Counted from the stretch's first letter, positions 4,302 through 19,501 are shown. The stretch is 64,000 nucleotides of DNA from Ignavibacteria bacterium (GCA_016178595.1 JACOSY010000016.1:38151-102150), one strand, 5' to 3'. The notes: generated from the letters alone by a model not told the origin. Made by a program: numbers and translations.

Positions 4302-6362
4302 TCACCAATTCAACACGGGAAAGAGCGACGTGTAATCGTCCGTCCACACCGGCACGGTAATAGTCGTCTGCCGGTCGGGGAAAACTGCTTCTTGAACTGC
4401 TCGCTGCTGAAGCAATGTCGTGTTCAGCGTTAACACGATCCACTCGGACGGAAACCGGCGGATGTCGCGCTCCTGGTTGAAATCGGTCAATACAATCATT
4501 GGAAGCTTTAACTCCTTCGCGACCGCAGCAACCACGGCGTGAAGGTTCACCTGTTTGCTGGAGATGTTGACGAGGATTGCGCCGTCCGGCTTGATGTGCT
4601 TCAGGAAAATTTCGAACGCTTCCCTGGTCAACAAATGCACGGGAGGAGAATCGCTGTTGAATGCATCCAGCACGAGCACGTCGAAATTCTGCGGCGGCTC
4701 CTTCTCCATCGAGAGGCGCGCATCGCCGATGACGATGTCGTTCCGTGCCAGGCAATCGGCAAGATAGGTGAAATGCTTCTCCGCCAACTGCTGCACCTGC
4801 GGGTTGATTTCGTAGAAGCGAAAATAGTCTCCGGGCCTGCCATACGCTGCGAGCGTTCCCACTCCCAGCCCCACCACACCGACACGGTGCGCGCTATCTC
4901 CCGGTAAGCTTGTCAGAACTCGTCCGGCTCCGCCTTTCGCAGTGAAATACGACGTGGGCATACGATGGTACTGCGGGTTGATAAACTGATACCCATGCAG
5001 CGTTTTCCCGTGCCGCATGACAAGGAACTGTCGATCACGATCGTTCTCATTATACGACGTGATCGCGAGCGTACTGAAAAAATTTCGTGCCGTATCCACC
5101 GTGTTATGATAGATAATGCGTGTCTGCTGGTAGAAAAGAATTGCAAAGATTGCCACTCCGGCTGCAAGGCCTGCCCATGCCCAGCGAGGTTTTCCGCGAC
5201 GCAACGGACTCGTCTCATCGACAAAGAACATCAGCAGGACAACACCGCAGCATGCAAGGATCGCGCATTGAAACTCATAATATCCGCTGAACAACACCGG
5301 CGCAAGAAACGTTACGAACATTCCGCCCATAGCGCCGCCAGCTGCAATCGACAAGTAATAGGAGGTAAGATGCGATGGCGGCGGTTTCAGTCGCGCGACC
5401 TCGCCATGACAAATCATGCAGCCGATGAATACAAGGCATGAATAGATTGCAAGCTGCGGCAGAAATGTCAACGTTTCTTCATTGAACATCATCCAGCACA
5501 CGATTGAGATAGCGACAAGGTATGCAATCGCGTATGTCGGGCGCGAGTACCACCGCGGGTGATCGAATGTGAGGACGAATGTGAGAAGATAGATGGCCAG
5601 CGGCAGCACCCAGAGCAACGGCATCGGCACAACTTCCTGGCAGAGCTTATTCGTTGTTGAGAGCAGCAGCACCGATGCGATCGCCGGCAGCGTTATCCAC
5701 AACGCACGATCGAGCAACGGCACAGCGACGACTTCTTGTTTTTCATCGTCCGGCGTCCGGGGACCCGGAAGAACCGAAGCCTTGCGCCAAAGGTAGACAG
5801 CACTCGCGACACACACGACGACGAACACCATCATCCCCCACGACCATACTTCCGCTTGCGCCCGGCGCGCGATGTTCGGCTCGACCACAAAGGGATATGC
5901 GATCAGTGCAAGCAGAGAGCCGACGTTCGATAACGCATAGAGTCGGTACGGAACTGTCGCAGGGGAAAGCATACTCAGCCAGCGCTGAAGCAGCGGACCG
6001 GTGGTCGCAAGAACAAAGTACGGAATGCCGAGCGAAACAAAGAGCAGCGTCAGGATGCGAATCGTCGGGTCGACGTTCGATGTGGGTTTCCATTGATCTC
6101 CGGGAATGATCGGCAAGAGCACGAGTGCGAGAAGAAGAATCAGAACGTGCAGAATAATCTGCTGGCGTGGACGAAGATATCGTGTGATCAGATGACTGTA
6201 GGCATATCCGAACAGAAGAAACGTTTGGAAGAACACGATGCAGGTTGTCCACACCGCTGCACTGCCGCCGAACCACGGCAGGATGTATTTGCTGATGATC
6301 GGCTGAACAAGGAAGAGGAGAAACGCGCTGAGAACAATTGTTATGGAATAGAGGATACGCAT
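4302..6362 (-). CDS. Fused polytopic membrane domain / spermidine-synthase-like aminopropyltransferase
   Basis: The N-terminal half has about 10 TM helices. The C-terminus has a spermidine synthase fold with GVVGLGVGTLA and DVLVLDAFNSD...PDGILVNI motifs. The start was chosen at MRILY (6362) because the upstream ATG at 6383 lies inside a hairpin. Confidence 0.7.
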   Translation of the reverse strand: MRILYSITIVLSAFLLFLVQPIISKYILPWFGGSAAVWTTCIVFFQTFLLFGYAYSHLITRYLRPRQQIILHVLILLLALVLLPIIPGDQWKPTSNVDPTIRILTLLFVSLGIPYFVLATTGPLLQRWLSMLSPATVPYRLYALSNVGSLLALIAYPFVVEPNIARRAQAEVWSWGMMVFVVVCVASAVYLWRKASVLPGPRTPDDEKQEVVAVPLLDRALWITLPAIASVLLLSTTNKLCQEVVPMPLLWVLPLAIYLLTFVLTFDHPRWYSRPTYAIAYLVAISIVCWMMFNEETLTFLPQLAIYSCLVFIGCMICHGEVARLKPPPSHLTSYYLSIAAGGAMGGMFVTFLAPVLFSGYYEFQCAILACCGVVLLMFFVDETSPLRRGKPRWAWAGLAAGVAIFAILFYQQTRIIYHNTVDTARNFFSTLAITSYNENDRDRQFLVMRHGKTLHGYQFINPQYHRMPTSYFTAKGGAGRVLTSLPGDSAHRVGVVGLGVGTLAAYGRPGDYFRFYEINPQVQQLAEKHFTYLADCLARNDIVIGDARLSMEKEPPQNFDVLVLDAFNSDSPPVHLLTREAFEIFLKHIKPDGAILVNISSKQVNLHAVVAAVAKELKLPMIVLTDFNQERDIRRFPSEWIVLTLNTTLLQQRAVQEAVFPDRQTTITVPVWTDDYTSLFPVLNW

Positions 6363-6412: not shown

Positions 6413-7732
6413 CTAATCGTAATACTCAAGTCCCAGGTGCGTGATCAGCTCTTCGCCCTTCATGTGGCGCAACGTGTTCTTCAACTTCATGAGCTGGATG
6501 AAGAGATCGTGCTCGGGGTAGAGACCCGGCGCAAACATCGGGCTCTTGAAGTAAAACGAAAGCCATTCCTGAATTCCTTTCATGCCGGCACGTTGAGCGA
6601 GATCCATAAAGAGCACGAGATCGAGCACGATGGGTGCGGCGAGGATCGAGTCGCGGCAGAGGAAGTTGATCTTCACCTGCATCGGGTAACCCATCCATCC
6701 GAAGATATCGATATTATCCCAGCTTTCCTTGTTGTCGCCGCGCGGAGGATAATAATTGATGCGGACCTTGTGATAGTAATTCTTGTAGAGTTCGGGATAT
6801 AATTCCGGCTGGAGAATTCCTTCCAGCACGGAGAGCTTGCTTTCTTCTTTTGTTTTGAACGACTCCGGATCGTCCAGCACTTCGCCGTCGCGGTTGCCGA
6901 GAATGTTGCTCGAGAACCAGCCGCTCAGTCCGATGAGGCGCGCTTTCAGCATCGGCGCGATGACGGTCTTGACAAGCGTCTGCCCTGTCTTGAAATCTTT
7001 TCCGGCAATGGGCAAACCCGTTTGCTTTGCAAGCTCCATCAGCGCCGGCGTATCGACCGTGAGGTTCGGTGCTCCGTTGGCGAACGGCACGCCTTCTTTC
7101 AGCGCGGCGTAGGCATAGAGCATGCTCGGTGCAATATCGGGGTGATTCTTTTTCATTGCGTCTTCGAGCTTCTTGACATTCTTATGTACGTTATTCGGAC
7201 TGATGAACACTTCCGTGCTGCCGCACCAGATCAGCACACACCGATCGAGCTTGTTAGCGGTCTTAAATGTACGGATGTCTTCGCGCAACATTTCCATCAA
7301 TTCAAACTTGGTTTTCCCTTTCTTCACGTGCTTCCCGCTGAGGCGCTTCACATAGAACTGGTCGAAGACGGCTTTCATCGGATGAACGGCCTGCAACTCT
7401 TTCTTAATGCTGTCGAGGTGAGTTCTCTCGAGAACGCCGGCTTCGCAAGCAGACGCGTAGCAATCCTCGTTGCGAATATCCCATCCGCCGAACACGAGAT
7501 CATCGAGCTTTGCGAGTGGAATGAAATTTTTGATGAGGGGCGAGCGATGCTCGGTGCGTTTGCCGAGACGGATCGTTCCCATTTGTGTGAGTGACCCGAT
7601 CGGCATGGCAAGACCTTTGCGCACCGCCATAACGCCGGCAAGAAACGTCGTAGAGACGGCGCCGTTCAGTCCGACGATGAGCACTCCGAGTTTTCCTTTT
7701 GGCTTTGTAATGGTGTGAGTAGTCTTCTTCAT
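6413..7732 (-). CDS. ino1: myo-Inositol-1-phosphate synthase (MIPS)
   Basis: NAD-binding GLNGAVSTT is present. SSNILGNRDG matches the conserved SYNHLGNNDG block of MIPS. Length is about 440 aa, with the start taken at MKKTTH. Confidence 0.8.
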   Translation of the reverse strand: MKKTTHTITKPKGKLGVLIVGLNGAVSTTFLAGVMAVRKGLAMPIGSLTQMGTIRLGKRTEHRSPLIKNFIPLAKLDDLVFGGWDIRNEDCYASACEAGVLERTHLDSIKKELQAVHPMKAVFDQFYVKRLSGKHVKKGKTKFELMEMLREDIRTFKTANKLDRCVLIWCGSTEVFISPNNVHKNVKKLEDAMKKNHPDIAPSMLYAYAALKEGVPFANGAPNLTVDTPALMELAKQTGLPIAGKDFKTGQTLVKTVIAPMLKARLIGLSGWFSSNILGNRDGEVLDDPESFKTKEESKLSVLEGILQPELYPELYKNYYHKVRINYYPPRGDNKESWDNIDIFGWMGYPMQVKINFLCRDSILAAPIVLDLVLFMDLAQRAGMKGIQEWLSFYFKSPMFAPGLYPEHDLFIQLMKLKNTLRHMKGEELITHLGLEYYD

Positions 7733-7795
7733 GACAGTGTTCCTTTTGATTTTAAAACTCCTTAGTGAAGGCGACGTCACGTGACGTCGCCTGCG

Positions 7796-8476
7796 TTAGA
7801 ATAGAATTTTCCGAATCTCTTCAAAATGTTCAATGCTAAAATCCGTAGCCGGTGTTTCGGTCGGATGTGCAGTCCAGCTCTTCCCTTTCAGCCAGATCGT
7901 CGTGCAGCCGAGCTGTTTTCCCGGGACAATATCGCGCTCGTACGAATCGCCGACGACGTATGCTTCTTGTGCAGCGATAGCAAGCCGGTCAAGCGCCAAT
8001 TGGAAAATTGCCGGATCGGGCTTTCGGATGCCGACGACAACCGAATCGATCATCGTATCGAAGTATCGATCCAAACTAAACTCTTTGCAGACAATTTCCA
8101 AATTGCCATAGAAGTTCGAAACAAGTCCGAGCTTGTATGCGCCGTGAAGATCATTCAGGAGATTTCGTGCGCCGGCAATGGTCTTTCCCACGTCGGCATA
8201 GCACGCATTAATGATCCGCATGAGAACTTCATGTCGCTCACTGAACCCGAGTATTGCGAATTGCAGCGTGAACTGCTTCACGAGCGTTGCGTAGAATGTC
8301 GCACTCGAAAGCGATGAATCTTCTCCAAGCTCTTCTTCCGAGCGAACGAAGACGCGCGCGAAGTCTTTCTTTGCCACGGGAAGCTTGAAACGCTCGTAAT
8401 ATTCCCAGAATTTTTCGCTCCAATGCACGCCATCGGTGTCGATCGTTCCGCCGAAATCAAAGAGGACTGCGTTCAT
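7796..8476 (-). CDS. HAD-superfamily hydrolase (candidate inositol-phosphate / phosphatidylinositol-phosphate phosphatase)
   Basis: The N-terminal DFGGT motif (HAD motif I with the nucleophile Asp) and a C-terminal GDSxxD are present. It sits between MIPS and the dehydrogenase. Confidence 0.75.
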   Translation of the reverse strand: MNAVLFDFGGTIDTDGVHWSEKFWEYYERFKLPVAKKDFARVFVRSEEELGEDSSLSSATFYATLVKQFTLQFAILGFSERHEVLMRIINACYADVGKTIAGARNLLNDLHGAYKLGLVSNFYGNLEIVCKEFSLDRYFDTMIDSVVVGIRKPDPAIFQLALDRLAIAAQEAYVVGDSYERDIVPGKQLGCTTIWLKGKSWTAHPTETPATDFSIEHFEEIRKILF

Positions 8477-8510
8477 CGTATCATCAAGATCATGATTTGT
8501 TTCTTCGACT

Positions 8511-8646
8511 CACCTCTCCCTAACCCTCTTCCTTCGCTACGCTCAGGACAAGCTCTACGAGGAGAGGGGATGCAGGCTTTGCAATTGCCTGGCATCGCAG
8601 TCAAAACATCCTCTCCTAGTAGGAGAGGATTATAGGTGAGGTGGGT
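8511..8646. repeat. Diverged palindromic MITE-like element (CACCTCTCC ... CCTCTCCTAGTAGGAGAGG ... AGGTGAGGTGGG)
   Basis: It has terminal inverted segments and an internal perfect palindrome. It lies between HAD 5'-end copies 1 and 2. Confidence 0.45.
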
Positions 8647-8724
8647 TTGCGTCAGCATAATACTCCCGAAGTCGAATAAGACAGCTTTCATCGGTCATCG
8701 TCTGACATTGTCAGTTCTTTCCTC

Positions 8725-8794
8725 CGACCCTCTCCTCTGTCACTGCGTGACATCCCCTCTCCCAAATTGGGAGAGGGGAACGAGGGGTGAGGGT
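8725..8794. repeat. Palindromic element, family 1 (CCCTCTCC-TGTCAC-N3-GTGACA-TCCCCTCTCCC-AAAT-TGGGAGAGGGG ... GGGTGAGGGT)
   Basis: The same architecture recurs at 10820-10886 and 19092-19192. Confidence 0.6.
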
Positions 8795-8827
8795 CAACGC
8801 TACCGCCGAAGTCGAGGAGGATTGCGT

Positions 8828-9841
8828 TCATACAAGATCGAGAACTGCTTTCTCCTCCGATGACCGGTAACTCGCATCCAACAACTTCATCACCATGAAT
8901 GCTTCATCCAACAGGTCGGTGGCCATGTTCTTTTGTTCGATCCGGCAAATGAATTCCTGAAACAGCGCCGCATACCAGGCAACGTATTGACTCTTATCGG
9001 AAACATCCGGCATCGGGATTTCTCGCGTCTCCTCTCCATCAGTGTGGAGCAGGTGTACACCGTCGTAGGAAAGACTTCCTTTCTCTCCGGCAACGTACAC
9101 GCTGTTCGCGCGCTGGTTTGCCGCCCACGTGAGGTTGATCTGCATGAGTGTGTCCGGATATTCGAGCGTGACGATTGCCGTGTCTTCAACCCCATAGTCC
9201 GTATGCTTCAGCGTCCGAAGGATTGCAGAGATTTTCTGTGGGATTCCAAAGAAGTATTGCGCAAGATAGAAATAATGCGCGCCGGTATCGACAAGAATCC
9301 CGCCGCCGCTGTGACTCTTGCTCGTCCGCCACTGCGGATTCCAATTTGCCGTTCCGGTATCGGCATGAAGCCGGTACACGTTGAATTGCGCGAGCGCGAC
9401 CTTGCCGAGCTTCCCTGACGCGATAACATCCCGGATCGATTTCCAGAGCGGTGAGTACTTGTATTGATGGCACGGCACAAACACGATTCCTGCTTTCTTC
9501 ACGGCATCGGCAAGCTCTCTTGCAGTAGAATATTTTTCCACCAAGGGTTTCTCGCACACAACATGAATACCTTTCGCTGCACAGGCTTTGATGTATTCTG
9601 CATGGGTGTACGGCGGCGTGCAGATATCGACAAAATCGGGCTTCTCGTTTTCAAGGAGTGTATTGATCGACGTATAAAAAGTTGCTCCCGGAAACACTTC
9701 GTTCGCCTTCGTACGACTTTGCTCTACCACGTCCATGACGGCAACGATACGTGCTTTCGACTTCACGCCTTCGGACTGATATGCCGGAACATGACCGCGC
9801 AGCGCGATGTTGCCAAGACCGATTAACGCGCCACGCAGCAT
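8828..9841 (-). CDS. Gfo/Idh/MocA-family NAD(P) oxidoreductase (inositol 2-dehydrogenase-like)
   Basis: An N-terminal Rossmann GLGNIALRGHVPAY is followed by EKP (CEKPL) and a GGG...D C-terminal domain. The start overlaps the upstream stop (TAATG). Confidence 0.8.
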   Translation of the reverse strand: MLRGALIGLGNIALRGHVPAYQSEGVKSKARIVAVMDVVEQSRTKANEVFPGATFYTSINTLLENEKPDFVDICTPPYTHAEYIKACAAKGIHVVCEKPLVEKYSTARELADAVKKAGIVFVPCHQYKYSPLWKSIRDVIASGKLGKVALAQFNVYRLHADTGTANWNPQWRTSKSHSGGGILVDTGAHYFYLAQYFFGIPQKISAILRTLKHTDYGVEDTAIVTLEYPDTLMQINLTWAANQRANSVYVAGEKGSLSYDGVHLLHTDGEETREIPMPDVSDKSQYVAWYAALFQEFICRIEQKNMATDLLDEAFMVMKLLDASYRSSEEKAVLDLV

Positions 9842-10812
9842 TACGCAACCACCTTCTGCTCATCCACCATCTCGATCAGTCGAGCGCTCAACTGTTCCTG
9901 ATGCATCGTCACGAGAATCATGACAAGGTTAATGCCGACAATCTCCGTGACGAAATACACCGGCACGACATCCGCAAGCACGCAGATTGACATGACGATC
10001 ATTCGCGTGTTCGTTGTCAGCGCGGCATAATACTTCATGAGCGGCTTGTTCAAACGACGGTACTCGTCGGAGAACCACGAGGGAATATTTGTTCCGAACT
10101 CCTGCTCGACTCGTTTCCGCAGCGTCTGAAAAGTTTTTGAGAGCGCTTCTTGTTGAACCGTGTAGTTCAAGTAGACGCGGAGAAGAATCTTCTTCAAAGG
10201 ATTCCTCGCGAAGGATGTCGACCGGTATTCGGAGCGAACTTGATCGGATTGGTCAAGCTCGGACTTGGTCGGATCGACGACAAATTTCAAGTATGCATTC
10301 CTGTAGTAATCGGCGAGCGAGCTTTGGAGGGAATGGCTGATGCCTCCTGCAAGTGTGAGCACAAGCAGTAACGGCCAGGCTACGTTCGGATATGTTTCGA
10401 CCATGCGTGCAAAGAGGTGCAGATAGATGCTGAGGAACATGATGTTCCCGCCGAGACCGTCGAGAATGCGGCCAATCTTCGATCGGTGGTTCGTCATGCG
10501 GGCAAGCTGCCCATCGACACTGTCAAGCGTATCGGCGATGATCCAGAGTGCGATTCCCCAGACATTGGTAAGGAAGTCTCTATAATAGAGCAAATGCCCG
10601 CCGGCGACGCCGATGAAGATGCTAACGATGGTGACGACGTTCGGCGTAATGCCAAGCGACTGACACGCCCGTGCGATCCAGAACCCGAGCGGACGGTAGA
10701 AGTAGATATCGATCGTCTCTTCGACGTCGCGGGCTTTGTACGTGGATTCGATTGCGGGTGTGGTAAATGTGTTCATCTCAATGTATTTTTCTGTTGCCGT
10801 AAACTTAGCCAT
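9841..10812 (-). CDS. CDP-alcohol phosphatidyltransferase family protein (PIP synthase / DIPP synthase-like)
   Basis: DTLDSVDGQLARMTNHRSKIGRILDGLGGN matches the D-G-x2-A-R-x8-G-x3-D-x3-D signature. There are multiple TM helices. Confidence 0.75.
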   Translation of the reverse strand: MAKFTATEKYIEMNTFTTPAIESTYKARDVEETIDIYFYRPLGFWIARACQSLGITPNVVTIVSIFIGVAGGHLLYYRDFLTNVWGIALWIIADTLDSVDGQLARMTNHRSKIGRILDGLGGNIMFLSIYLHLFARMVETYPNVAWPLLLVLTLAGGISHSLQSSLADYYRNAYLKFVVDPTKSELDQSDQVRSEYRSTSFARNPLKKILLRVYLNYTVQQEALSKTFQTLRKRVEQEFGTNIPSWFSDEYRRLNKPLMKYYAALTTNTRMIVMSICVLADVVPVYFVTEIVGINLVMILVTMHQEQLSARLIEMVDEQKVVA

Positions 10813-10819
10813 TTCTCAG

Positions 10820-10886
10820 CTACCCTCTCCCTGTCACTTCGTGACATCCCTCTCCCAGATTGGGAGAGGGATCATAGGGTGAGGGT
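10820..10886. repeat. Palindromic element, family 1
   Basis: The sequence is CCCTCTCCCTGTCACTTCGTGACATCCCTCTCCCAGATTGGGAGAGGGATCATAGGGTGAGGGT. It lies between the aminotransferase stop and the transferase start. Confidence 0.6.
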
Positions 10887-12223
10887 TACATTTTCTGTGC
10901 TAATACTCCGAATGCCTGATCCATGATGTCAATCCCCTCTTCCGCAGTCGCTTCGTCGATGACGAGCGGGGGATTGATGCGGATGTCCGGACTGTAGCTC
11001 ATTGTGATGAGGCCTCGTTTCAGGCACTCGAAGAAAACCATCTTGCACGTTTCTTTGTCGAGTTTCTCCTTCGTGCCGGGCTTCACGAGCTCAACGCCGA
11101 TAAGGAGCCCTTTGCCCCGCACTTCACCGATGAACGGATATTTTTCTTTGAGCTTCATGAACTTACTCAACATGAACGCTCCAACCTTGCGAGAGTTTTC
11201 CACCAGTCCGTCTTCAACGATGGTCTTCACCGTAACGTAGGCTGCCGCTGAGGCGAGTGGATTCCCGCCGTAGCTCGAGGAGCTGCCGCTTGGGTTTGCG
11301 AACGGCTTCGAGAAAATAATTTCATCGCGCGACATGAGTCCGGTCATCGGATAACCGCCGCCAAAACTCTTACCGATCGTGATAATATCGGGAACGATAT
11401 TATCATGCTGGCAAGCGAAAAGTTTTCCGGTACGACCGAATCCTGTGATCATCTCGTCGCAGATCAAGAGCGCACCGATCTCTTTGGTCAGCTTACGAAG
11501 CTCAATCAAGTATCCTTCCGGCGGCACCACGTTGCCGTTGGTTCCCTGTATCGGCTCGACGATGATCGCCGCGAGGTTGCCGGTCGTCTCCGTCTTGATC
11601 TTTTCGCGAATGAAATCCACGCACGCCCAGTTGCACTCGGGGAAGGTGAGGTGCAGCGGACAGCGGCGGCAATTCGCGTACGGCGTATTGTAAATGCCGA
11701 ATGGCAACGGACCGAGCTGCTGCTTGAACGTATCGCCGATGAGTCCGACCACACCGAGCGTTTTTCCGTGGAAGCCGCCCCAGAAACCCATGACTTCGGT
11801 TTTCTTTGTGTAGGATTTTGCGAGCCGCAGTGCCGCTTCGACCGCTTCCGCGCCGCCACTATAATATTGCGTGCGATAAAGGTCGCCCACGGCGTTTTCG
11901 GCAAGCATCTTCGAAAGCTCGGCGCGTACTTTCGTGGTGAACGACCCGACGTGGATCTTCGCCACCTGTTCTTGCATCATCTTCACGTACTTCGGATGAT
12001 TGTAGCCGAGGCTCGAAACCGCAACGCCGGCAAAGAAGTCGATGTAACGGTTGCCATCGACATCCTCGATGATACAGCCCTCGCCTTTCTCGACAACGAT
12101 CTGCGACAGCGTGGCAATCGTCTGTGTGCCAGGAGAAATATATTTCTGTTCGAGGTCGAATATCTCCTTCGACTTCGGCCCGGGGATGGCGGTTTTGATG
12201 GAGGATTTTTTCTTGTGCGTCAT
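10886..12223 (-). CDS. Class-III (ornithine/GABA-type) PLP-dependent aminotransferase
   Basis: The DEMITGFGRTGK PLP-lysine region and a GG...HG glycine-rich block are present. The start was reassigned to MTHKKK (12223) because the upstream ORF extension overlaps the neighbouring gene. Confidence 0.8.
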   Translation of the reverse strand: MTHKKKSSIKTAIPGPKSKEIFDLEQKYISPGTQTIATLSQIVVEKGEGCIIEDVDGNRYIDFFAGVAVSSLGYNHPKYVKMMQEQVAKIHVGSFTTKVRAELSKMLAENAVGDLYRTQYYSGGAEAVEAALRLAKSYTKKTEVMGFWGGFHGKTLGVVGLIGDTFKQQLGPLPFGIYNTPYANCRRCPLHLTFPECNWACVDFIREKIKTETTGNLAAIIVEPIQGTNGNVVPPEGYLIELRKLTKEIGALLICDEMITGFGRTGKLFACQHDNIVPDIITIGKSFGGGYPMTGLMSRDEIIFSKPFANPSGSSSSYGGNPLASAAAYVTVKTIVEDGLVENSRKVGAFMLSKFMKLKEKYPFIGEVRGKGLLIGVELVKPGTKEKLDKETCKMVFFECLKRGLITMSYSPDIRINPPLVIDEATAEEGIDIMDQAFGVLAQKM

Positions 12224-12230
12224 AGTATCA

Positions 12231-13052
12231 CTAATCAACATGTGAATGTGCCTTTCTGTAAATAAGCTGTGCAATATGCTTACTTGCCTGCTCGCGCACG
12301 GGGGCAAAGCTCGGCCAGTCATTGATATCGATGATCGTGACGCTACCATCCCTTCCGATGATCGCGTCTCCACCGTACACATACAAGTTGAGCGCATCGG
12401 CGGAAGCCAGGGCAAGCTCGCGGAGCTTTTTCTCGTCGAATGGCGTGTGGTATACGCCGTTCAAGTAATACCAGTGGAAGAGATCGGTTTCACGCACTGC
12501 GTAAAATTTCACCGTGTCGCCGTCAAGATGTTCCTGCAAGATGGCTTGCTTGATGTCGCGCGCATGAAATTCCTTCAGGAGTGTCATCTCCTCATCGTCC
12601 GTGCTTGCGAGCGTTACATCTTCTTTATGAACGGCATGGACGTCTCCACGCTTGATCCAGATCTTCGATGTTGTGAAGCCGGCTTGCCGCGGGTTGATGT
12701 CGGAATCTGTCGCAACGATGACGCTTTTAGGGAACGGAATTCCTGCTTGCGGCAACATCTTTACCATGTTAATCCGGTAACAGTTCATTACCGCCCGCGG
12801 GGAGTTGATGATGGATGCGCCGCGCTGCTCGATCGTCAGAAGTGTGTTGGAACCGATCGGGCCTTGCGCCATGGAGAAAATCAGTTTCTCTTTAACATCG
12901 TCCGGCGTGACAACGCCTTCATCGTGCATCGTCACTTCAGCACCGAGCTTTTTCAATTCATCAGCCGTCTGGTTGATGATGAGAAGATCGTTCACGACAT
13001 GGTTCGGCGAAAATTCCGTCTTCCGCCGAATGCCTGCAAAATGGAGTTTCAT
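12231..13052 (-). CDS. ATP-grasp fold protein (possible ligase or inositol-phosphate-kinase-like enzyme)
   Basis: The C-terminal IIDINDWP looks like a DxN Mg-binding motif. The overall length and spacing fit an ATP-grasp fold. The family assignment is tentative. Confidence 0.4.
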   Translation of the reverse strand: MKLHFAGIRRKTEFSPNHVVNDLLIINQTADELKKLGAEVTMHDEGVVTPDDVKEKLIFSMAQGPIGSNTLLTIEQRGASIINSPRAVMNCYRINMVKMLPQAGIPFPKSVIVATDSDINPRQAGFTTSKIWIKRGDVHAVHKEDVTLASTDDEEMTLLKEFHARDIKQAILQEHLDGDTVKFYAVRETDLFHWYYLNGVYHTPFDEKKLRELALASADALNLYVYGGDAIIGRDGSVTIIDINDWPSFAPVREQASKHIAQLIYRKAHSHVD

Positions 13053-13690
13053 GAAAAGAGTTTCGACAAGAATGATGGTGGATCGTCGGGCGGCTGCGGC
13101 ATACCCAGAGCAATTTCCCGGTCACGGCGGATGATCGCCTGTGTATCGATTTCCCGTTGAAGACGGTAGTCGACAAGGATTGTTCCGACAACAAACCCGA
13201 TCAAGTTAGCAAAAAACACGACGTGCAGGGCAATGTGAAATCCCCGAACGCCGAAGAGCACCGTCGCAAGGTAGCCGAAGTAGATCATGAACCGTTTGAA
13301 GCCGGGATCGAACTTCGAGAGCGGCTCTATTATAGTCACGAGCAGAATAGCGACGAATGCCAGAACGGCCATGAAATACGTCACTTGCCCGATGTACGCA
13401 AGCGCGAGGAAGATCGCAAGCTCGCTCAGTCGGTCATAAATAACTTCGAGCATTTGCCCCTTCTCGGATTGCAAATTGTAGCGACGAGCGACACCGCCAT
13501 CGAGTCCGTCGATGACTTGCGCGATGGCAAGCAGGACCAATCCGTGAACGAGCGAGCCGGTTGCAACAACGGTGGCCGCCATCATTCCAACAATAAAGCC
13601 GATCGTTGAAATCGTATTCGGCATGAGACCGAGTGTCTCGTGCACGAAACGGATGGGAAAACTCAGTATGTTGTCACTGGTCGAAGGCAT
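13049..13690 (-). CDS. CDP-alcohol phosphatidyltransferase family protein (second copy)
   Basis: The DGLDGGVARR...G...D signature is present in a 213-aa membrane protein. It overlaps the downstream gene by ATGA. Confidence 0.7.
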   Translation of the reverse strand: MPSTSDNILSFPIRFVHETLGLMPNTISTIGFIVGMMAATVVATGSLVHGLVLLAIAQVIDGLDGGVARRYNLQSEKGQMLEVIYDRLSELAIFLALAYIGQVTYFMAVLAFVAILLVTIIEPLSKFDPGFKRFMIYFGYLATVLFGVRGFHIALHVVFFANLIGFVVGTILVDYRLQREIDTQAIIRRDREIALGMPQPPDDPPSFLSKLFS

Positions 13691-13704
13691 CTTCTTGAAA
13701 AATC

Positions 13705-13770
13705 CACGTCCCGCCTTTAGGCGGGATGGCGCTCCACGAGTCTGACGACTCTATAGAGTCGTAGACCAAA
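13705..13770. repeat. Palindrome cluster (CCCGCCTTTAGGCGGG; GTCTGACGACTCTATAGAGTCGTAGAC)
   Basis: A perfect hairpin and a 27-nt palindrome are seen. The second is related to GTCTACGACTCT...AGACTCGTAGA inside the 19092-19192 element. Confidence 0.5.
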
Positions 13771-13863
13771 GGCGCTCATACTAATTTCTTATTCCTCAAC
13801 AGGCGCTAAATTCTAAAACCCAATCGCGCTGAAGTGATTTAGATGTTAGAATTCGTTTAGAAT

Positions 13864-14325
13864 TTAGAGATGAAACTGTAACACTCGACCTTTCGCAACT
13901 GCGACCACGAGGATCAACACCACGCACACCACGCACGTCCAAATTTCTTTCGATGTATCGGAATATTTCCGTAACATTCCTTCCGTCGAGTATGTGCTGA
14001 AGGGATAGAACGGCCGCTTCTCGTAGCTCACCATGTAATCCAGCATGAAGTGAGAGATGAAAAAGAGCGCCGGCACGTACGTTCCCAGGTACACCGAGAG
14101 CGGAATAATCCACGCGAGTGCAATCGGCTCTTGCAGCGGTGTTCGCCAATGATAATGTGTCTCATTCTTTTTGCCATTCTTCTTCAAATACAATGGAAGC
14201 TTGATAGGATGATCGATAAGATCGATGCCGTAGCCGAATGCATAGGCAAGGACGATATCCTTTCCTTCAAGCCCGAGAACTTGAACTCCAAGCGTGGTCA
14301 CGAGAAGATGTGGTACGATGGTCAC
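13864..14325 (-). CDS. Hypothetical membrane protein
   Basis: 153 aa with 3-4 TM helices and conserved His residues. An alternative overlapping ORF is at 13796-14149. Confidence 0.35.
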   Translation of the reverse strand: MTIVPHLLVTTLGVQVLGLEGKDIVLAYAFGYGIDLIDHPIKLPLYLKKNGKKNETHYHWRTPLQEPIALAWIIPLSVYLGTYVPALFFISHFMLDYMVSYEKRPFYPFSTYSTEGMLRKYSDTSKEIWTCVVCVVLILVVAVAKGRVLQFHL

Positions 14326-14586
14326 AGAGAACTTCGCTCAATTGAACAGTGTGTGGTATTGCAGTTCCGGACAGATAAATGAAATGCGAGACGTGCGGAA
14401 AAGCCTCGCATTTGACAGGAAATGCCTCTCAATGTACGCAACTGTCAAGGATTTTCAAAATTGGGTGCTGTCCTTATTTATGTTAAGCGCAGAGAAGATA
14501 ATGTCTTTGCGATTCTCGGCGGCCTCTGCGACTCTGCGATAGAGAACCAAGATCAACTTAGGACAATACCCAAAATTGCGCTGAGG

Positions 14587-15603
14587 CTACAATGGAATTT
14601 GTTCTGCAGCTGTCTCCGGCTCAGGGCGTTTCCGCGTCGCGAGTGGAATAAAGAGAAGCCCGATCAGTATCCACACAAACTCCCGGATGCGCATCACCAC
14701 GCCGAGGTAAATTCCAAGGAGCGGCGTTATCGCCAGACTCCCCAATCCCAGGTAAAGCCCGCCTTCGCGCGCGCCGAGGTTCAATGGAATAAAGAACAGC
14801 AGGTTAATAACAATGGAATAGACTACGTAGAGAAATATGGCGGCAACAAGGCCGGTTTCCACTCCCACGCCGCGCAGGATCAAGTACACCTCGAATGCCA
14901 TGCACACACGGCTCATGTACTCAAGCAAAATGGCAGCAGAGAATTTTTTCCGATCCTTGTGGTAGACTTCGGTGAGGGCGGTATCCATCTCCACCAAACT
15001 CTCCGTGTATTTCCCGAGCAGGCGGGCAAGCGGCCGAAGAATCCGCAGTCTGTTGACAACGCGCTGCATCGGCGTGAAGACGCCTTGCCGGTGGCCGAGC
15101 AGCGTCAGCAGGACAACTGCACTGATAACAATTGCTGAGACGATCAACGCGCCGCTGACTGCGAGAGGAAGGGAAAGAACGAGAAGAGCGACGAGTAATC
15201 CGGTCAGAAGGAATAGCATGTGTCCCAGGAGGTGCACCATGCGATAGAGAACAACTGCCGAGAGCGAGCGCTGCGTGCCGAGTTCGCCCGAAAGCGCTTT
15301 CACTTTGTATGGCTCACCGCCGAGTGCAAGGAACGGCGTGATATAGTTGATGACAAATCCCGAGACCGTCACCATAAAGAGCTGCGCGAAGGTAATCCGC
15401 CTCCCCGATTCACCGAGGACGAGCTTCCAGGCAAGCGTATTCAAAAGATAGACGATGAGCCAGACGAGAACAATGTAGAGAAGACTCCATCCTGCCCGCT
15501 CGATGTTCTGAAGGATCCGATCGACTCCGAACCGGGACACCAGATAGGCAAATACTCCCGCTCCGAAGAGAAAAAAAGCGATGTTGAACCGGCGGCTTTT
15601 CAT
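14587..15603 (-). CDS. Lysylphosphatidylglycerol-synthase (MprF) TM-domain-like flippase family protein
   Basis: It has about 8 TM helices, and the topology and length match the UPF0104 flippase-like family. Confidence 0.6.
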   Translation of the reverse strand: MKSRRFNIAFFLFGAGVFAYLVSRFGVDRILQNIERAGWSLLYIVLVWLIVYLLNTLAWKLVLGESGRRITFAQLFMVTVSGFVINYITPFLALGGEPYKVKALSGELGTQRSLSAVVLYRMVHLLGHMLFLLTGLLVALLVLSLPLAVSGALIVSAIVISAVVLLTLLGHRQGVFTPMQRVVNRLRILRPLARLLGKYTESLVEMDTALTEVYHKDRKKFSAAILLEYMSRVCMAFEVYLILRGVGVETGLVAAIFLYVVYSIVINLLFFIPLNLGAREGGLYLGLGSLAITPLLGIYLGVVMRIREFVWILIGLLFIPLATRKRPEPETAAEQIPL

Positions 15604-15608
15604 GCTCG

Positions 15609-16571
15609 CTAAAATACCGATATCTTAACGTAGCGCTCGGGATGCTCGCGCAGATCGACGAGCAGGAGATTCAAATCCTTCATCATGCCAATGAGCTGGC
15701 GATAGAAATTGCCATCGCTGACGAGCTTCGAGACACTGCTCGTATCAGCCGACGCCTTCGCCATGAGAGAATCCGCCCGCGCAGAGAATGAGGAGAGACT
15801 CGTATAGAGCCGGTCATCCATGATCAGCTTGCCCATCGTTCCCTTGCCTTGCCGGATTTGGTCGGTGACATTCTTGAGATTGGAGGAAACATCGGAGATA
15901 TTGCGCCCGAACGATTCATCATAAATAAACTTTCCAAGAGCGCCGCGCTTCTCCTCGACGGCAGCCATGAGACCGTTCAGCGAGCGGAGGAAGCGTTCCA
16001 TCTCATTGGCAATAGTTGGCTGTTTGATTAAGCGCCCGATCGAGCCTTCTCCGCGATCCATCGTAGCTGCAATATGCTTGGCGCTCTTGAGAAGCTCGGT
16101 GAAATCCGCGAGCGCAGTTCTGAACTGCGGCCCTGCCATTTCGATATCGAACGATTCGATGATCGGGATATACGAATTCTCAACCAGCGGCGGCTCGTCC
16201 CGGCTGCCGATCGTCAAATCGATATACTTGTCGCCGAGGAGGCCGATGGTTTTGATTTGCGCAAAGGTGCTCGTCGTGATGGTCGATCTGTATTTGGTCA
16301 ATAAGTCTGCGGTAATGTCGACGCCGTTGACACTGTCGCGTGTCGCGAAGCGCATATCCCTGACGTATCCAACCTTCAACCCGCCAAGCGATATCATGGC
16401 GCCGTTCACGAGGCCATGGACGTTGGTAAGGAAGAACTTCAACTGGTACGTCGACGCGAACACATTCTGTTCGGTCCCGACAATACTCACGATGAACACG
16501 AAGACAACGAGACCGACCAGAACAACGAGACCGACTTTGAGGCTCGACCACTTCATTTGGGTTTGATTCAT
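15609..16571 (-). CDS. mlaD: MlaD/MCE-domain phospholipid ABC transporter substrate-binding protein
   Basis: An N-terminal TM anchor is followed by an MCE domain (LKVGYV...GLLGDKYIDL). Confidence 0.75.
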   Translation of the reverse strand: MNQTQMKWSSLKVGLVVLVGLVVFVFIVSIVGTEQNVFASTYQLKFFLTNVHGLVNGAMISLGGLKVGYVRDMRFATRDSVNGVDITADLLTKYRSTITTSTFAQIKTIGLLGDKYIDLTIGSRDEPPLVENSYIPIIESFDIEMAGPQFRTALADFTELLKSAKHIAATMDRGEGSIGRLIKQPTIANEMERFLRSLNGLMAAVEEKRGALGKFIYDESFGRNISDVSSNLKNVTDQIRQGKGTMGKLIMDDRLYTSLSSFSARADSLMAKASADTSSVSKLVSDGNFYRQLIGMMKDLNLLLVDLREHPERYVKISVF

Positions 16572-16583
16572 GGAGCTCCGCCG

Positions 16584-17339
16584 TTATTGGTTGGCAAAGA
16601 GTAAACTTGCTTCTTCACGAATTTCGGAGAGAAATTCTTGCACGAACGTGTCTTTCGACGCAAGGATATCGTGTGCATTCCCATCGAAAACGATGCGGCC
16701 ATCACTGACGACGGCGAGCGAGTCGCCGACGGCAAACGCATCGCGCAGAATATGTGTCACGACGATGGAAGTGACCCTGCGTTCATTCTTCAGTTTCAAC
16801 ATCAGCTCGGTCACCGTCTTGGCATTGATCGGATCGAGGCCCGTTGTCGGTTCATCGTAGAGAATGATTTCGGGATGGAAGGCGATCGCTCTCGCAATTG
16901 CGACACGTTTCTTCATCCCTCCGCTAATTTCCTCCGGCAACAGACTGCCGGCATCCGGAAGGTTGACGAACTCAAGACACTCTTGTACGCGCTTGTCGAT
17001 TTGCTCCGGCGTCATGGGGGAATGTTCTTCAAGAAAAAATCCGACGTTCTCCGCAACCGTCAATGAATCGAACAACGCGTTCCCCTGGAAGATCATCGAC
17101 ATGCGCCGGCGAACCGGCATTTGTTCGCGTTCACTCAAGCGGGTAATCTCAATATCGTCGACAAATACCTTGCCGACATCCGGCTTCCACAAACCCAGGA
17201 CAACTTTCAGGAGCGAACTCTTCCCTGCGCCGCTCGGGCCGAGCATGACCTTTGTTTCGCCATCATTCACACGGAAGGATACGTCGTCGAGGATCTTTCG
17301 TTCTTCAAATTCGACTGTTATATTTTCCAAACGAATCAT
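16584..17339 (-). CDS. mlaF: Phospholipid ABC transporter ATP-binding protein MlaF
   Basis: Walker A GPSGAGKSS, the ABC signature LSGGMKKRVAIARA and Walker B ILYDEPTTGLD are present. Confidence 0.85.
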   Translation of the reverse strand: MIRLENITVEFEERKILDDVSFRVNDGETKVMLGPSGAGKSSLLKVVLGLWKPDVGKVFVDDIEITRLSEREQMPVRRRMSMIFQGNALFDSLTVAENVGFFLEEHSPMTPEQIDKRVQECLEFVNLPDAGSLLPEEISGGMKKRVAIARAIAFHPEIILYDEPTTGLDPINAKTVTELMLKLKNERRVTSIVVTHILRDAFAVGDSLAVVSDGRIVFDGNAHDILASKDTFVQEFLSEIREEASLLFANQ

Positions 17340-17384
17340 GATGTTGACTCTTATAATCCTTGTCACGAGGCCGGTTTTTCATTG

Positions 17385-17523
17385 CCACGAGCTTCAGCTC
17401 GTGGATAGCATCTCCAAAAACCTCGAGGGGTTTCAACCTCTAATCAGCCAGCGTTTTTTTGATGGCTAAAGCCCCACTCGCCCTTGACTCTTCCGTCCAC
17501 GACCTAAAGGTCGTGGCAATCGG
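17385..17523. repeat. Family-2 multi-hairpin element (CCACGAGCTTCAGCTCGTGG ... GGGTTTCAACC ... GGCTAAAGCCCC ... CCACGACCTAAAGGTCGTGGCAATCGG)
   Basis: It is the reverse-complement copy of the element at 20903-21050. It is intercistronic between mlaF and mlaE. Confidence 0.6.
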
Positions 17524-17559
17524 ACTGTTCGCTCATCAGGGAATTCCTTCACATCCATT

Positions 17560-18345
17560 CTATAGTATCGACCAGATCACTTTCGTAAAAATGAAATCAT
17601 TGAAGAGCACAACCACCGATGAGACCACGACAGCGTTGACCGCCGCACGTCCTACGCCAATTGTCCCTCCTGTCGTCGCTAATCCGTAATAACAACTTAT
17701 GGTCGAGATGAAGAATGAGAAAACGACCGGCTTGGCAAATCCGACAATCAGGTCTTTTATCTTAAGATCGTAGATTGCCGAGTGCCAGAAAAAACCTTTG
17801 TCGACGTTCAGCCACCAATCGGAAACATACATCCCTCCGACGAGTCCAACGAGATCGGAAACCAGCGTGAGAGGCAGAAACATGACGAGCGCTGCGATAA
17901 GGCGCGGCACGGCGAGTTTCTCGATCGGATCCGTTCCGAATGCCCGCAGCGCGTCGATCTGTTCGCTTACTTGCATGGAGCCTAGCTCAGAGGCGTTCTT
18001 CGCACCGGTGCGCGCCGCAAGGAGCAAGCCGGTGATGACGGGACCGAGCTCGCGGAAGAGCGCAAGCGACGTCGTACGTCCGACAAGGAGCTTCGCGCCG
18101 AACGTCTCGAGTCTGTGCCCCGCCTCGATGGCCATGATGATTCCCATGAACAGACCCGAAAGCGACGCGATCATAAACGCCTGCGCGCCGATGATGTACA
18201 TTTGCTCGAGCGTATCGCGCCGGTAGCGCCACGCGGAGCGCAGCGATCGGACGTTCTCGTAGACGAAGATCGAGTACTCTTGCAGCCGCCAGAGCATGCG
18301 CTTGAACGTTCGGACGGGGGCGATATCGGCAGCGGGCCATGCCAT
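17560..18345 (-). CDS. mlaE: Phospholipid ABC transporter permease MlaE
   Basis: It has a MlaE-type polytopic permease topology and sits adjacent to mlaF and mlaD. Confidence 0.8.
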   Translation of the reverse strand: MAWPAADIAPVRTFKRMLWRLQEYSIFVYENVRSLRSAWRYRRDTLEQMYIIGAQAFMIASLSGLFMGIIMAIEAGHRLETFGAKLLVGRTTSLALFRELGPVITGLLLAARTGAKNASELGSMQVSEQIDALRAFGTDPIEKLAVPRLIAALVMFLPLTLVSDLVGLVGGMYVSDWWLNVDKGFFWHSAIYDLKIKDLIVGFAKPVVFSFFISTISCYYGLATTGGTIGVGRAAVNAVVVSSVVVLFNDFIFTKVIWSIL

Positions 18346-18348
18346 GCA

Positions 18349-19071
18349 CTATTTCGGATTCTCGTGAAGCCACTCTTCCGCCGTCCGGATATCCTGCACA
18401 TGATCGACATCCACGATTTTTGAGAATGGATATCCTTCCAGCGTGTAGCCGTTCTCCACGAGATGACTCAGGAAATTCCGCAGGCGCTCGATGTTACGAT
18501 TGAGGACGACATCGATTTCGTTAAAAATTCTTGGAGAGAAAACGTACATGCCGCCGGTGACCCACTCTTCCTTTTCCCCGCGCAGGGTGACATTTGTTTT
18601 TTTGGCAAAACGGAGAATCCGTTTCTGCGCGTCCATCTCTACATAGAGCGGGTTCTCATCATCGATAAAATTCGTGATTGCAAGAATTCCATCAAGCGAG
18701 GCTTTCCCTTGTGCGTACTGAAGATACCGGCAGAATTCTTCTTCATGAAATATCGAATCGACGGTTGAGAGAAGAAACTGTTCATCGCGCAGATGTGTAG
18801 CAAGAGCGAAGAGACTATGCATCGAGCTTGGCGTCGTCCTGACAACGAAGTCGATCGTGATCGGGAAATGTTTCTGTTCGATGAAGCGTTTCACCTCGAG
18901 AGAATATTCATTGACGATGCAGGCGATTTCGGTGATGCCGTTCCGGATGAACGTCGCGATCAATCGTTCGATGAGCGGAATGCCATTGACAGGGACGAGC
19001 GGCTTCGGCAGAGCGATGCCTTCCGATTTGAGCCGGCTTCCTTCCCCCGCTGCGATGATGGCTGCTTTCAT
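18349..19071 (-). CDS. Nucleotidyltransferase (NTP-transferase fold; inositol-phosphate cytidylyltransferase-like)
   Basis: The N-terminal AAGEGSRL...PKPLVPV motif is the sugar-phosphate nucleotidyltransferase G-x-G-x-R-L signature. Confidence 0.7.
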   Translation of the reverse strand: MKAAIIAAGEGSRLKSEGIALPKPLVPVNGIPLIERLIATFIRNGITEIACIVNEYSLEVKRFIEQKHFPITIDFVVRTTPSSMHSLFALATHLRDEQFLLSTVDSIFHEEEFCRYLQYAQGKASLDGILAITNFIDDENPLYVEMDAQKRILRFAKKTNVTLRGEKEEWVTGGMYVFSPRIFNEIDVVLNRNIERLRNFLSHLVENGYTLEGYPFSKIVDVDHVQDIRTAEEWLHENPK

Positions 19072-19091
19072 ATGTATTAATGTTGCGTAAG

Positions 19092-19192
19092 ACCCTCACC
19101 CCGTCCCGACTTCGTCGTGACGCCCCTCTCCCATTGGGAGAGGGGACGGTCTACGACTCTACCGAGTCGAAGACTCGTAGAAGGGTGAGGGT
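19092..19192. repeat. Palindromic element, family 1, with perfect 10-bp terminal inverted repeats (ACCCTCACCC ... GGGTGAGGGT)
   Basis: Its internal palindromes are CCCCTCTCCCATTGGGAGAGGGG and GTCTACGACTCT..AGACTCGTAGA. Confidence 0.65.
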
Positions 19193-19501
19193 CGAAAAAT
19201 GTGTGAAAAGATACCAAGAATTTGACAGATTTCCAAGAATACATACGGCAACGGTCTTGACAGACGAAAGAAATTTGAGTATGTTTCCATTGCCTCGGGG
19301 GAGTACGACGCTGAGGGCTACTGCATATCATGATCAACATGTCTTACTCCATATCTGCCGCGAGTGTTGTGTGGATTTGCAAAAGCTTTGAATTGATAGG
19401 AGGAGTTCGACGTAAAGAAATAAAGATGCAATGCGGATGTATATTGTTATACGCAACGCCGCCCGACGCATGATTGTCCTACATATTCATGACCATCGCT
19501 T

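Follow-up and report, generated by a model that had tools for sequence, protein, structure and literature searches.

Palindromic elements recur directly upstream of several genes in an operon predicted to serve lipid synthesis in an Ignavibacteria bacterium, within a 64,000-nt stretch of DNA (GCA_016178595.1 JACOSY010000016.1:38151-102150; hereafter the window, numbered from its first letter). This arrangement raises the question of whether the elements are shared regulatory sites that coordinate the pathway or mobile repeats that have landed between its genes, and a first-pass annotation of the sequence had entertained both. We find it very likely that they are solo, non-coding copies of the dispersed BoxC/PIT/TM palindromic repeat (PIT, potential intrastrand triplex), present as lineage-specific insertions and without a pathway-specific regulatory role.

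The 9-mer CCCTCTCCC occurs seven times on the two strands of the window, always within 8755-8777, 10823-10870 or 19124-19144, compared to an expectation of 0.25 and with none of 100 shuffles reaching seven. Exact copies of GGGTGAGGGT lie at 8785, 10877, 19092 (minus strand) and 19183. We built a covariance model (CM R1) from 28 full copies and ran it over the window without filters. It scored 84.9 bits at 10822-10886 and 70.2 bits at 8727-8794 (E 2e-14), more weakly at 19092-19150 (27.9 bits) and 8608-8630 (18.2 bits, E 0.05), and detected no fifth member in the 64 kb (next best 11.9 bits, E 1.7). The motif elements that the first-pass annotation had placed at 8725-8794, 10820-10886 and 19092-19192 are therefore real, with counts far above chance and a model hit at each. 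Its TGTCAC-N3-GTGACA palindrome is present in the first two copies (elements A and B), as is the perfect 10-nt inverted pair ACCCTCACCC/GGGTGAGGGT at 19092-19101 and 19183-19192 in the third (element C). The supposed diverged copy at 8511-8646 (element D) does carry a trace of the family in its central hairpin, the 18.2-bit hit, although it is a decayed composite rather than a single copy. The window thus contains three sharply bounded elements and one decayed composite, all in spacers of one minus-strand operon.

The core of the element, CCCTCTCCC-loop-GGGAGAGGG-loop-GGGTGAGGG, matches the E. coli BoxC/PIT/TM triplex repeat block for block, and the three 9-mers are identical to E. coli TMECO sequences (Table 1 of Holder et al. 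2015, PMC4666352). This repeat was named BoxC, then PIT and then TMECO (PMC4666352), and Holder et al. described 23 copies in K-12 and occurrence in more than 260 genomes, strictly intergenic, beside functionally unrelated neighbours and with raised local variability. Kaplan et al. 2016 (PMC5100583) described the same motif as a G-quadruplex/hairpin switch. Both A (CCCCTCTCCC / GGGAGAGGGG / GGGGTGAGGG) and B (CCCTCTCCC / GGGAGAGGG / GGGTGAGGG) comprise a pyrimidine block, a complementary purine block and a third purine block mirroring the second. Their loops (5 and 5 nt in A, 5 and 6 nt in B) lie within the limits of 1-6 nt used in ITxF and 0-10 nt used by Hoyne et al. In copy C the distances to the third block, ~38 nt on one side and 21 nt on the other, exceed these limits. 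Copies in related metagenome-assembled genomes (MAGs) are likewise intergenic, multi-copy and next to functionally unlinked neighbours. Earlier work on BoxC/PIT is said to include that of Bachellier in the 1990s and of Hoyne and Maher in 2000.

The window elements share with BoxC/PIT/TMECO the three identical blocks, short loops, intergenic and multi-copy occurrence independent of gene function, presence within operons (pstA-pstB) and local indels. Unlike that repeat, the window motif sits in a longer unit, in which a fourth block provides 10-nt terminal inverted repeats (TIRs) and a GTCAC-N3-GTGAC hairpin is conserved; copy C, with its 38-nt nested insertion, falls outside the triplex definition, and the host is an Ignavibacteria. 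This GTCAC hairpin variant had no match in the literature searched. The window elements are thus a BoxC/PIT/TM variant in a new host, in a longer, double-ended form. The folds computed here are Watson-Crick folds; by analogy with E. coli, the elements may also form an intrastrand triplex or G-quadruplex.

Two other classes of dispersed repeat offer comparisons. REP/BIME sequences and their RAYT (Y1) genes, the REPtrons, have a similar layout of dispersed intergenic palindromes in mosaic combinations, with a small nuclease gene bracketed by repeats. Membership in this class was rejected because the alignment lacks a GTAG-type head and because the associated gene, described below, encodes a PD-(D/E)XK Vsr-like protein (Pfam DUF559 / MTES_1575, REase-like) and not an HUH/Y1 transposase. 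Correia/NEMIS in Neisseria and ERIC/IRU in enterobacteria are miniature inverted-repeat transposable elements (MITEs) co-transcribed within operons. Like them, the window elements are small, non-coding units with TIRs that lie between co-transcribed genes, would form long mRNA stem-loops and vary in presence or absence. Unlike the window elements, these MITEs have defined TA or other target duplications and lack a mirror repeat of the triplex type; the window elements have no linked transposase from a known family.

To examine dispersal, we scanned public genomes with the pattern GTCAC-N3-GTGAC-N1-3-CCCTCTCCC-N2-6-GGGAGAGGG and found it in 53 stretches of MAGs from several phyla, including at least 17 loci in one Ignavibacteriota MAG. 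Its hosts are Ignavibacteriota, Bacteroidota, Chlorobiaceae, Alphaproteobacteria, Chromatiales, Dehalococcoidia, Gastranaerophilales, Phycisphaerales and Actinomycetota, and the generic hairpin alone has at least 120 matches in viral contigs. The Ignavibacteriota/Bacteroidota unit spans 62-66 nt with sharp ends and unrelated flanks, and consists of A-CCCTC[A/T]CCC, the GTCAC hairpin, the CCCTCTCCC/GGGAGAGGG hairpin, a short spacer and GGG[T/A]GAGGGT. Units of this lineage, A and B included, measure 62-68 nt (62-101 nt with C) and are non-coding, with the size and TIRs of a MITE. In five loci (L146, L147, L149, L128 and L153) a further conserved ~30-nt module (..AACGAGTGACACAACGATCCAACGA..) follows GGGTGAGGGT at the right flank of the element; this module, in one Ignavibacteriota/Bacteroidota subfamily, indicates that the 62-nt unit can belong to a larger mosaic repeat.

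Pairing within the unit is maintained by covariation. At the variable outer-stem position, 12 copies have A-U and nine have U-A, the inner stem extension is A-U in 21 and G-C in six, and the innermost pair shows four pair types. Overall, 97.4% of cells are paired; none of 500 shuffles reached these values and slid controls fell far short. Since symmetry persists right up to the centre despite variation in the central bases, intrastrand pairing is favoured over a fixed sequence bound by a dimeric protein.

The first-pass annotation had considered scattering across unrelated intergenic sites to be the signature of a repeat with no regulatory role, and this is the pattern we observed. Elsewhere, copies lie beside genes for LacI-type regulators, TyrRS, a DtxR-type repressor, fucose isomerase, a GH63-like hydrolase, an OYE reductase, an OPT transporter, GuaA, NuoL, MarC, a Ser/Thr kinase, an M20 peptidase and an amine oxidase, which are functionally unrelated. 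Where both neighbours are visible in other MAGs, 20 of 28 copies lie between co-directional genes and several abut the upstream stop codon. The elements of the window do lie at the 5' ends of genes, as first noted, but this is uninformative, since co-directional genes place each element equally 3' of the preceding gene. A Logan assembly contig containing the exact GFO/IDH/MocA oxidoreductase (GFO) and CDP-alcohol transferase 1 (CDP1) genes of the window ends inside both flanking elements, as expected of a multi-copy repeat.

We identified syntenic relatives by scanning metagenomes with the GFO protein, which gave 45 loci, ~30 of them keeping the gene order from NTP-transferase to myo-inositol-1-phosphate synthase (MIPS). 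The orthologous junctions are empty in every syntenic relative examined. In these relatives the gap between GFO and the HAD gene is mostly 0-30 nt (the exception being L188, with 234 nt and an unrelated palindrome), the genes for class-III aminotransferase (AT3) and CDP1 overlap in nearly all, and the covariance model gave no hit below E 0.2 in 293 kb. Protein identity to the ~30 relatives is only 55-74%, so these are old insertions. The term empty applies here to the window's own sequence family and to orthologous sites: the exact-motif scan missed TM-like elements of other subfamilies in two relatives, at the HAD|MIPS junction in L178 and after HAD in L188. These lie at other junctions and point to repeated, independent invasion of the operon. 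In L188 the GFO|HAD junction (5815-6047) has an unrelated AT-rich palindromic insertion, AATAACCAATAACCAAGC...GGTTATTGATCATTGGTTATT. Having been hit in both the window and L188, the GFO|HAD junction seems to be a recurrent landing site.

The GFO|HAD spacer of the window (351 nt) consists of three diverged copies of one junction unit, arranged as U1, element A, U2, element D and U3, the last leading into HAD. Each unit comprises the last ~25-28 nt of GFO and the first ~13 HAD codons; relatives have one. Local alignment of U1 with U3 scored 51, compared to 17.4 +/- 3.4 for shuffles (0/500), and U2 scored 32 and 41 compared to ~17-18 +/- 3.5-3.9 (0/500). Either a long (~65-80 nt) target duplication occurred twice, or one event was followed by unequal crossing-over. 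Around element B, duplication of the AT3/CDP1 overlap was at chance level (DNA score 20 versus 18.2 +/- 3.2), with a weak protein-level resemblance of the AT3 tail. Element B shares its last base with the AT3 stop codon, and AT3 has a new C-terminus there; the element differs from a copy in an Ignavibacteriota MAG (L138) in its loop alone.

Each junction unit has kept the ancestral ATGA stop/start overlap, so that two upstream open reading frames (uORFs) connect GFO to HAD. The start codon of uORF1 overlaps the GFO stop, its own stop overlaps the uORF2 start and the uORF2 stop overlaps the HAD start, all as ATGA. Neither contains an in-frame stop (the other frames have one and two for uORF1, and six and five for uORF2), and we estimate the chance of the whole relay, including two phase requirements, at ~1e-3. 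Judging from reading frames, the chain may be a selected translational-coupling relay that would also melt the hairpins.

Based on these results, we propose that a unit whose 10-nt TIRs (ACCCTC[A/T]CCC ... GGG[T/A]GAGGGT) enclose the GTCAC-N3-GTGAC and CCCTCTCCC/GGGAGAGGG hairpins would have inserted, in this lineage only, at three sites of the operon: the 5' untranslated region (UTR) and two junctions that are tight or overlapping in relatives. Its copies would be part of the operon's transcript and fold there into three-way-junction stem-loops of great stability. At GFO|HAD the host would have accommodated the insertions by having the target present three times around two elements, with pseudo-starts forming an ATGA-coupled uORF chain that runs through them and carries ribosomes on to the genuine start of HAD. 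To account for the clustering in a single operon, we assume that the repeat spread locally or had a locally favoured target. The locus would thus show a tightly coupled operon surviving repeat invasion by target duplication and a uORF chain.

Several observations weigh against this interpretation. All copies of the 64 kb lie in one operon, which random scatter does not predict: the three occupied sites fall within the ~14 operon sites among ~54 sites of the window (hypergeometric p ~0.015). Orientation relative to transcription is biased 14:5 in co-directional contexts, hinting at a strand-dependent constraint. Multi-copy status in the source genome is indicated indirectly, from 64 kb and an assembly break at two elements. 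No clear short target-site duplication is readable at copies A-C and no transposition was observed; likewise, Holder et al. and the Maher lab saw no mobility, promoter activity or terminator activity for E. coli BoxC (PMC4666352). Finally, an E. coli polymorphism that otherwise speaks for mobility is compatible with either insertion or deletion. The K-12 pst operon has a BoxC copy between pstA and pstB; approximately half of 5,426 complete E. coli genomes lack exactly 92 nt at this copy, a segment flanked by an 8-bp direct repeat, AACCGTGT.

We clustered the open reading frames (ORFs) of the 53 element-bearing loci to find recurrent neighbours and obtained one, a 115-145-aa DUF559 protein (Pfam E 1e-31 to 1e-36, Vsr/REase-like) at six loci in five MAGs. 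Wherever both sides are visible (L132, L144, L145 and L158), elements bracket this gene, as they also do in L251-L256 and on a viral contig (L095). In the syntenic relative L188, a DUF559 gene inserted between CDP1 and GFO lies between the arms of a ~38-nt near-perfect inverted pair belonging to a TM variant (aligned arm 43 nt, z 27). Two tests used loci picked by the DUF559 protein alone. On viral contigs, inverted repeats of 32-66 nt bracket the gene in 17 of the 23 loci with both flanks (z 11-29), compared to 1 of 75 other genes of the same loci. As read from the arm sequences, the arms belong to at least five families, with a common architecture in which a pyrimidine/purine hairpin is combined with a small G+C hairpin and a mirrored purine arm. 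The second test found TM-type elements beside the gene in all seven DUF559 homologues on long contigs. Counts of fixed TM 8-mers near and far from DUF559 genes on viral contigs (5 in 10.9 kb and 39 in 137 kb) are uninformative because block sequences differ between lineages, and the inverted-repeat test with controls was used instead. Many DUF559 genes lie on contigs shorter than 3 kb, as though assembly tended to stop at the flanks of the gene. The physical association of these genes with the repeats is well supported; mechanistically, it may reflect a mobilising nuclease, homing or something else.

E. coli K-12 offers a parallel arrangement at the DUF559 gene ycjD, where a degenerate TM hairpin at the stop codon is followed by a ~40-nt copy of the ycjD 3' end and then TMECO#9. 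This layout of gene, element, gene remnant and element recurs in L144 and L251. In ~38% of complete E. coli genomes, collinearity with K-12 stops ~40 nt from TMECO#9, downstream of fabI (L220, K-12 1,349,500-1,352,500; L250), and an eefRABC-type efflux island begins at the break; a rearrangement boundary therefore adjoins the TM element and ycjD.

The link to a nuclease has independent context. Milman et al. (PMC9881135) reported a 14-fold enrichment of 'DUF559 domain-containing protein' among predicted inversion targets, an independent sign of flanking inverted repeats. The Vsr/DUF559/DUF2726 clade includes a group I intron homing endonuclease, I-Bth0305I (Steczkiewicz et al. 2012, PMC3424549); the partner gene thus belongs to a clade that holds a proven selfish nuclease, although the DUF559 genes here are free-standing and not intron-borne. 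We propose, with confidence slightly short of even, that BoxC/PIT/TM repeats are the solo form, whether deletion derivative or homing site, of a widespread selfish cassette that has so far gone undescribed. This cassette would consist of a ~115-145-aa DUF559 (Vsr-like PD-(D/E)XK) gene and bracketing repeats of conserved architecture, the nuclease driving both spread and local instability, with ycjD as the E. coli candidate. For the window, the cassette would be the autonomous partner of the solo copies; the window itself has no DUF559 gene, so its copies would be non-autonomous under any DUF559 model. The decayed element D may be what is left of a cassette that was once occupied. A search of the literature, which was not exhaustive, found no paper linking DUF559 or YcjD to BoxC/PIT/TM. 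To our knowledge, BoxC/PIT/TM repeats, which occur in hundreds of genomes and are linked to instability, triplexes and G-quadruplexes, have been orphans since the 1990s without a known origin or mobilising function; similarly, we know of no activity for these DUF559 genes, and DUF559 is not a known transposase. The association provides a concrete candidate partner that is testable genetically through ycjD in E. coli. If true, it would assign a role to a large domain family and may explain the enrichment of DUF559 among 'programmed inversion' targets (PMC9881135). Many of the IMG/VR contigs L221-L240 (6-9 kb) end within ~60 nt of the DUF559 gene and its flanking repeats, and the cassette may be a marker or a cause of the boundaries predicted for prophages or contigs.

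The MITE-like, non-autonomous interpretation offered in the first-pass annotation is supported by sharp boundaries, covarying TIRs, empty sites in relatives, unrelated loci in other MAGs and a bracketed candidate partner gene. How the solo copies relate to the DUF559 gene could be otherwise. They could be recognition or insertion sites of a homing-type DUF559 endonuclease gene rather than its deletion derivatives, in which case their own spread would need another mechanism. In an Ignavibacteriales contig (L252) the DUF559 gene interrupts a single element and has a copy of the central hairpin on each side; without the gene and one of these hairpins, the sequence is window element B almost base for base. 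The contig comes from run SRR12113397, whose accession is near that of SRR12113389, the run with the genes of the window. Together with the group I intron homing endonuclease of the clade (PMC3424549), L252 makes the homing-site alternative possible; we nonetheless judge it doubtful, since complete elements flank the gene in L145, L251 and L144, and the 38-nt inverted pair at L188 is transposon-like.

A second alternative accepts solo copies and holds that they have been co-opted, with transcribed stem-loops acting in cis to set relative gene expression, whether by stabilising the 5' end or intercistronic regions, by serving as RNase processing sites or by insulating translation. ERIC, REP and Correia elements are known to have stabilising or processing-type cis effects. 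The predicted folds here are three-way junctions of high stability, with DNA at approximately -24 kcal/mol and mRNA-sense RNA at -42 to -67 kcal/mol (z -5 to -7); A reaches -24.5 kcal/mol as DNA (z -6.6) and -43.4 as RNA (z -5.5), and C reaches -66.9 as RNA (z -7.0). Element C lies at the predicted 5' end of the transcript, and the orientation bias described above would also fit such a role. Conversely, the sites are not conserved in relatives, and Rfam at gathering thresholds detected one tRNA in the window and no family at the elements. Nor do A-C appear to be intrinsic terminators, as they lack a U-tract and none was among the 8 terminator-like sites called in the window (11.8 expected); the only such minus-strand calls near these features are the hairpin of element D (8630-8608) and one at 13726-13709, both with weak tails. 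A promoter scan found nothing at A-C, and in work by the Maher lab E. coli PIT had neither a promoter nor a terminator effect (cited in PMC4666352). We consider co-option rather unlikely.

It is more improbable that the elements are not mobile at all. In the 'genomic instability' model of Holder et al., triplex- and G-quadruplex-prone motifs arise and decay in place by replication slippage and error-prone repair, and local duplications are by-products. Flank duplications beside elements in the window, in L144 and at E. coli ycjD are as this model predicts, as is the rearrangement boundary near TMECO#9. It leaves unexplained the near-identical units of 62-68 nt, GTCAC hairpin and spacers included, at dozens of unrelated loci in several phyla, and the 8-bp direct repeat that flanks the pst copy in E. 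coli. The elements therefore probably move rather than arise in place. A shared operator, in which the palindromic core binds a dimeric regulator that co-regulates the lipid genes, has in its favour the perfect palindromes and the confinement of every window copy to one operon, and is highly implausible because the operon is kept without the elements in ~30 relatives, flanking genes elsewhere are unrelated, three of the four sites are inside one transcription unit with little for an operator to act on, and central bases vary while symmetry is kept. Neither an operator nor a co-regulatory RNA element, as first suggested for these sites, is thus upheld, which removes a tempting but wrong regulatory annotation.

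Table. Coordinates of the elements, junction units, reading frames and other features of the window
Feature	Position (nt)	Strand	Description
Element A	8727-8794	plus	68-nt solo BoxC/TM-type unit between GFO and HAD, inside uORF1; ACCCTCTCC-TCT-GTCAC-TGC-GTGAC-AT-CCCCTCTCCC-AAATT-GGGAGAGGGG-AACGA-GGGGTGAGGGT
Element B	10822-10886		65-nt solo unit between AT3 stop and CDP1 start
Element C	19092-19192		101-nt unit with perfect 10-nt termini, predicted 5' UTR of NTP-transferase; variant hairpin CGAC-TTC-GTCG/GTGAC; nested extra hairpin at 19148-19174
Element D	8511-8646		decayed 136-nt composite; outer blocks CACCTCTCCC / GGTGAGGTGGGT; centre, perfect palindrome ATCCTCTCCTA-G-TAGGAGAGGAT at 8608-8630; second hairpin CCCTCTTCC...GGAGAGGGG with long loop; 38 nt between the two hairpins
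U1	8795-8859	minus	last ~28 nt of GFO and 13 codons of HAD-like start (MNAILLDFGGSVD); ends exactly at element A
U2	8647-8726	minus	MKAVLFDFGSI..; bounded exactly by elements A and D
U3	8438-8507	minus	copy running into the functional HAD gene
uORF1	8688-8831	minus	47 aa; reads through element A
uORF2	8473-8691	minus	72 aa; reads through element D
GFO	8828-9841	minus	oxidoreductase gene
HAD	7796-8476	minus	ATG at 8476
CDP1 start	10812	minus	ATG
AT3 stop	10886-10888	minus	TAA
NTP-transferase start	19071	minus	ATG; first operon gene
Promoter-like motif	19205-19242	minus	CTTGGAAATCT-N-TTTTGGTATCTTTT, upstream of NTP-transferase
Separate hairpin module	13740-13770		GTCTGACGACTC-TATA-GAGTCGTAGAC, in the YdjM|CDP-transferase-2 spacer; no covariance-model hit

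The operon that received the elements lies in a region, from 19071 down to 4302, in which the minus strand carries every gene. Its order is NTP-transferase, MlaE, ABC ATPase, MlaD, an LPG-synthase-TM protein, a YdjM-like protein, CDP-alcohol transferase 2, a gene of unknown function, AT3, CDP1, GFO, HAD and MIPS, followed by a 693-aa ORF without a Pfam match. Pfam confirms the calls of HAD (Hydrolase, spanning residues 1-191 of 191), the two CDP-alcohol phosphatidyltransferases and NTP-transferase. The 13-gene cluster (6413-19071), whose order is kept in ~30 metagenomic relatives (loci L175-L209), mixes inositol-1-phosphate synthase, CDP-alcohol transferases, aminotransferase, oxidoreductase, HAD, NTP-transferase, MlaDEF-like transport and LPG-synthase-TM. 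Such a set of genes points to a pathway that makes and exports an (amino)inositol-type phospholipid.

The motif CTTGGAAATCT-N-TTTTGGTATCTTTT upstream of NTP-transferase is common to the window and five relatives (L176, L181, L182, L184 and L201) and is the only conserved non-coding block 5' of the operon. Bacteroidota promoters are of the -33 TTG / -7 TAnnTTTG type, and the motif resembles them and may act as one. Element C begins ~8-10 nt downstream of the predicted start point. If the motif is a promoter, all window copies would be co-transcribed with the operon.

Palindromes at 13705-13770, which the first-pass annotation had related to the family, do not belong to it: they have no covariance-model hit, and all that they have in common with element C is a 22-nt hairpin module (13745-13766), which recurs in the insertion inside that element (19153-19174). 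This module, ACGACTC-N4-GAGTCG, is absent from 219 other loci and occurs at two window sites only; it is a separate, rare module and not a TM element. The YdjM|CDP-transferase-2 spacer in which it lies is 173 nt long, and relatives' tblastn alignments of both genes are 60-130 nt apart. The same spacer has a perfect 12-nt inverted pair, CTAAATTCTAAA...TTTAGAATTTAG (13806-13867), and, just before the CDP-transferase-2 start, the G+C hairpin TCCCGCC-TAAA-GGCGGGA (13709-13726), which was called terminator-like with a weak T-tail. A different palindromic element of ~140 nt occupies the MlaE|ABC-ATPase spacer (17367-17559), with 25-nt terminal inverted repeats (17381-17405 and 17496-17520), each itself a hairpin, CCACGAGC-TTCA-GCTCGTGG. 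This spacer measures 193 nt in the window compared to 3-10 nt in relatives, and its enlargement indicates that a second repeat family also invaded the operon.

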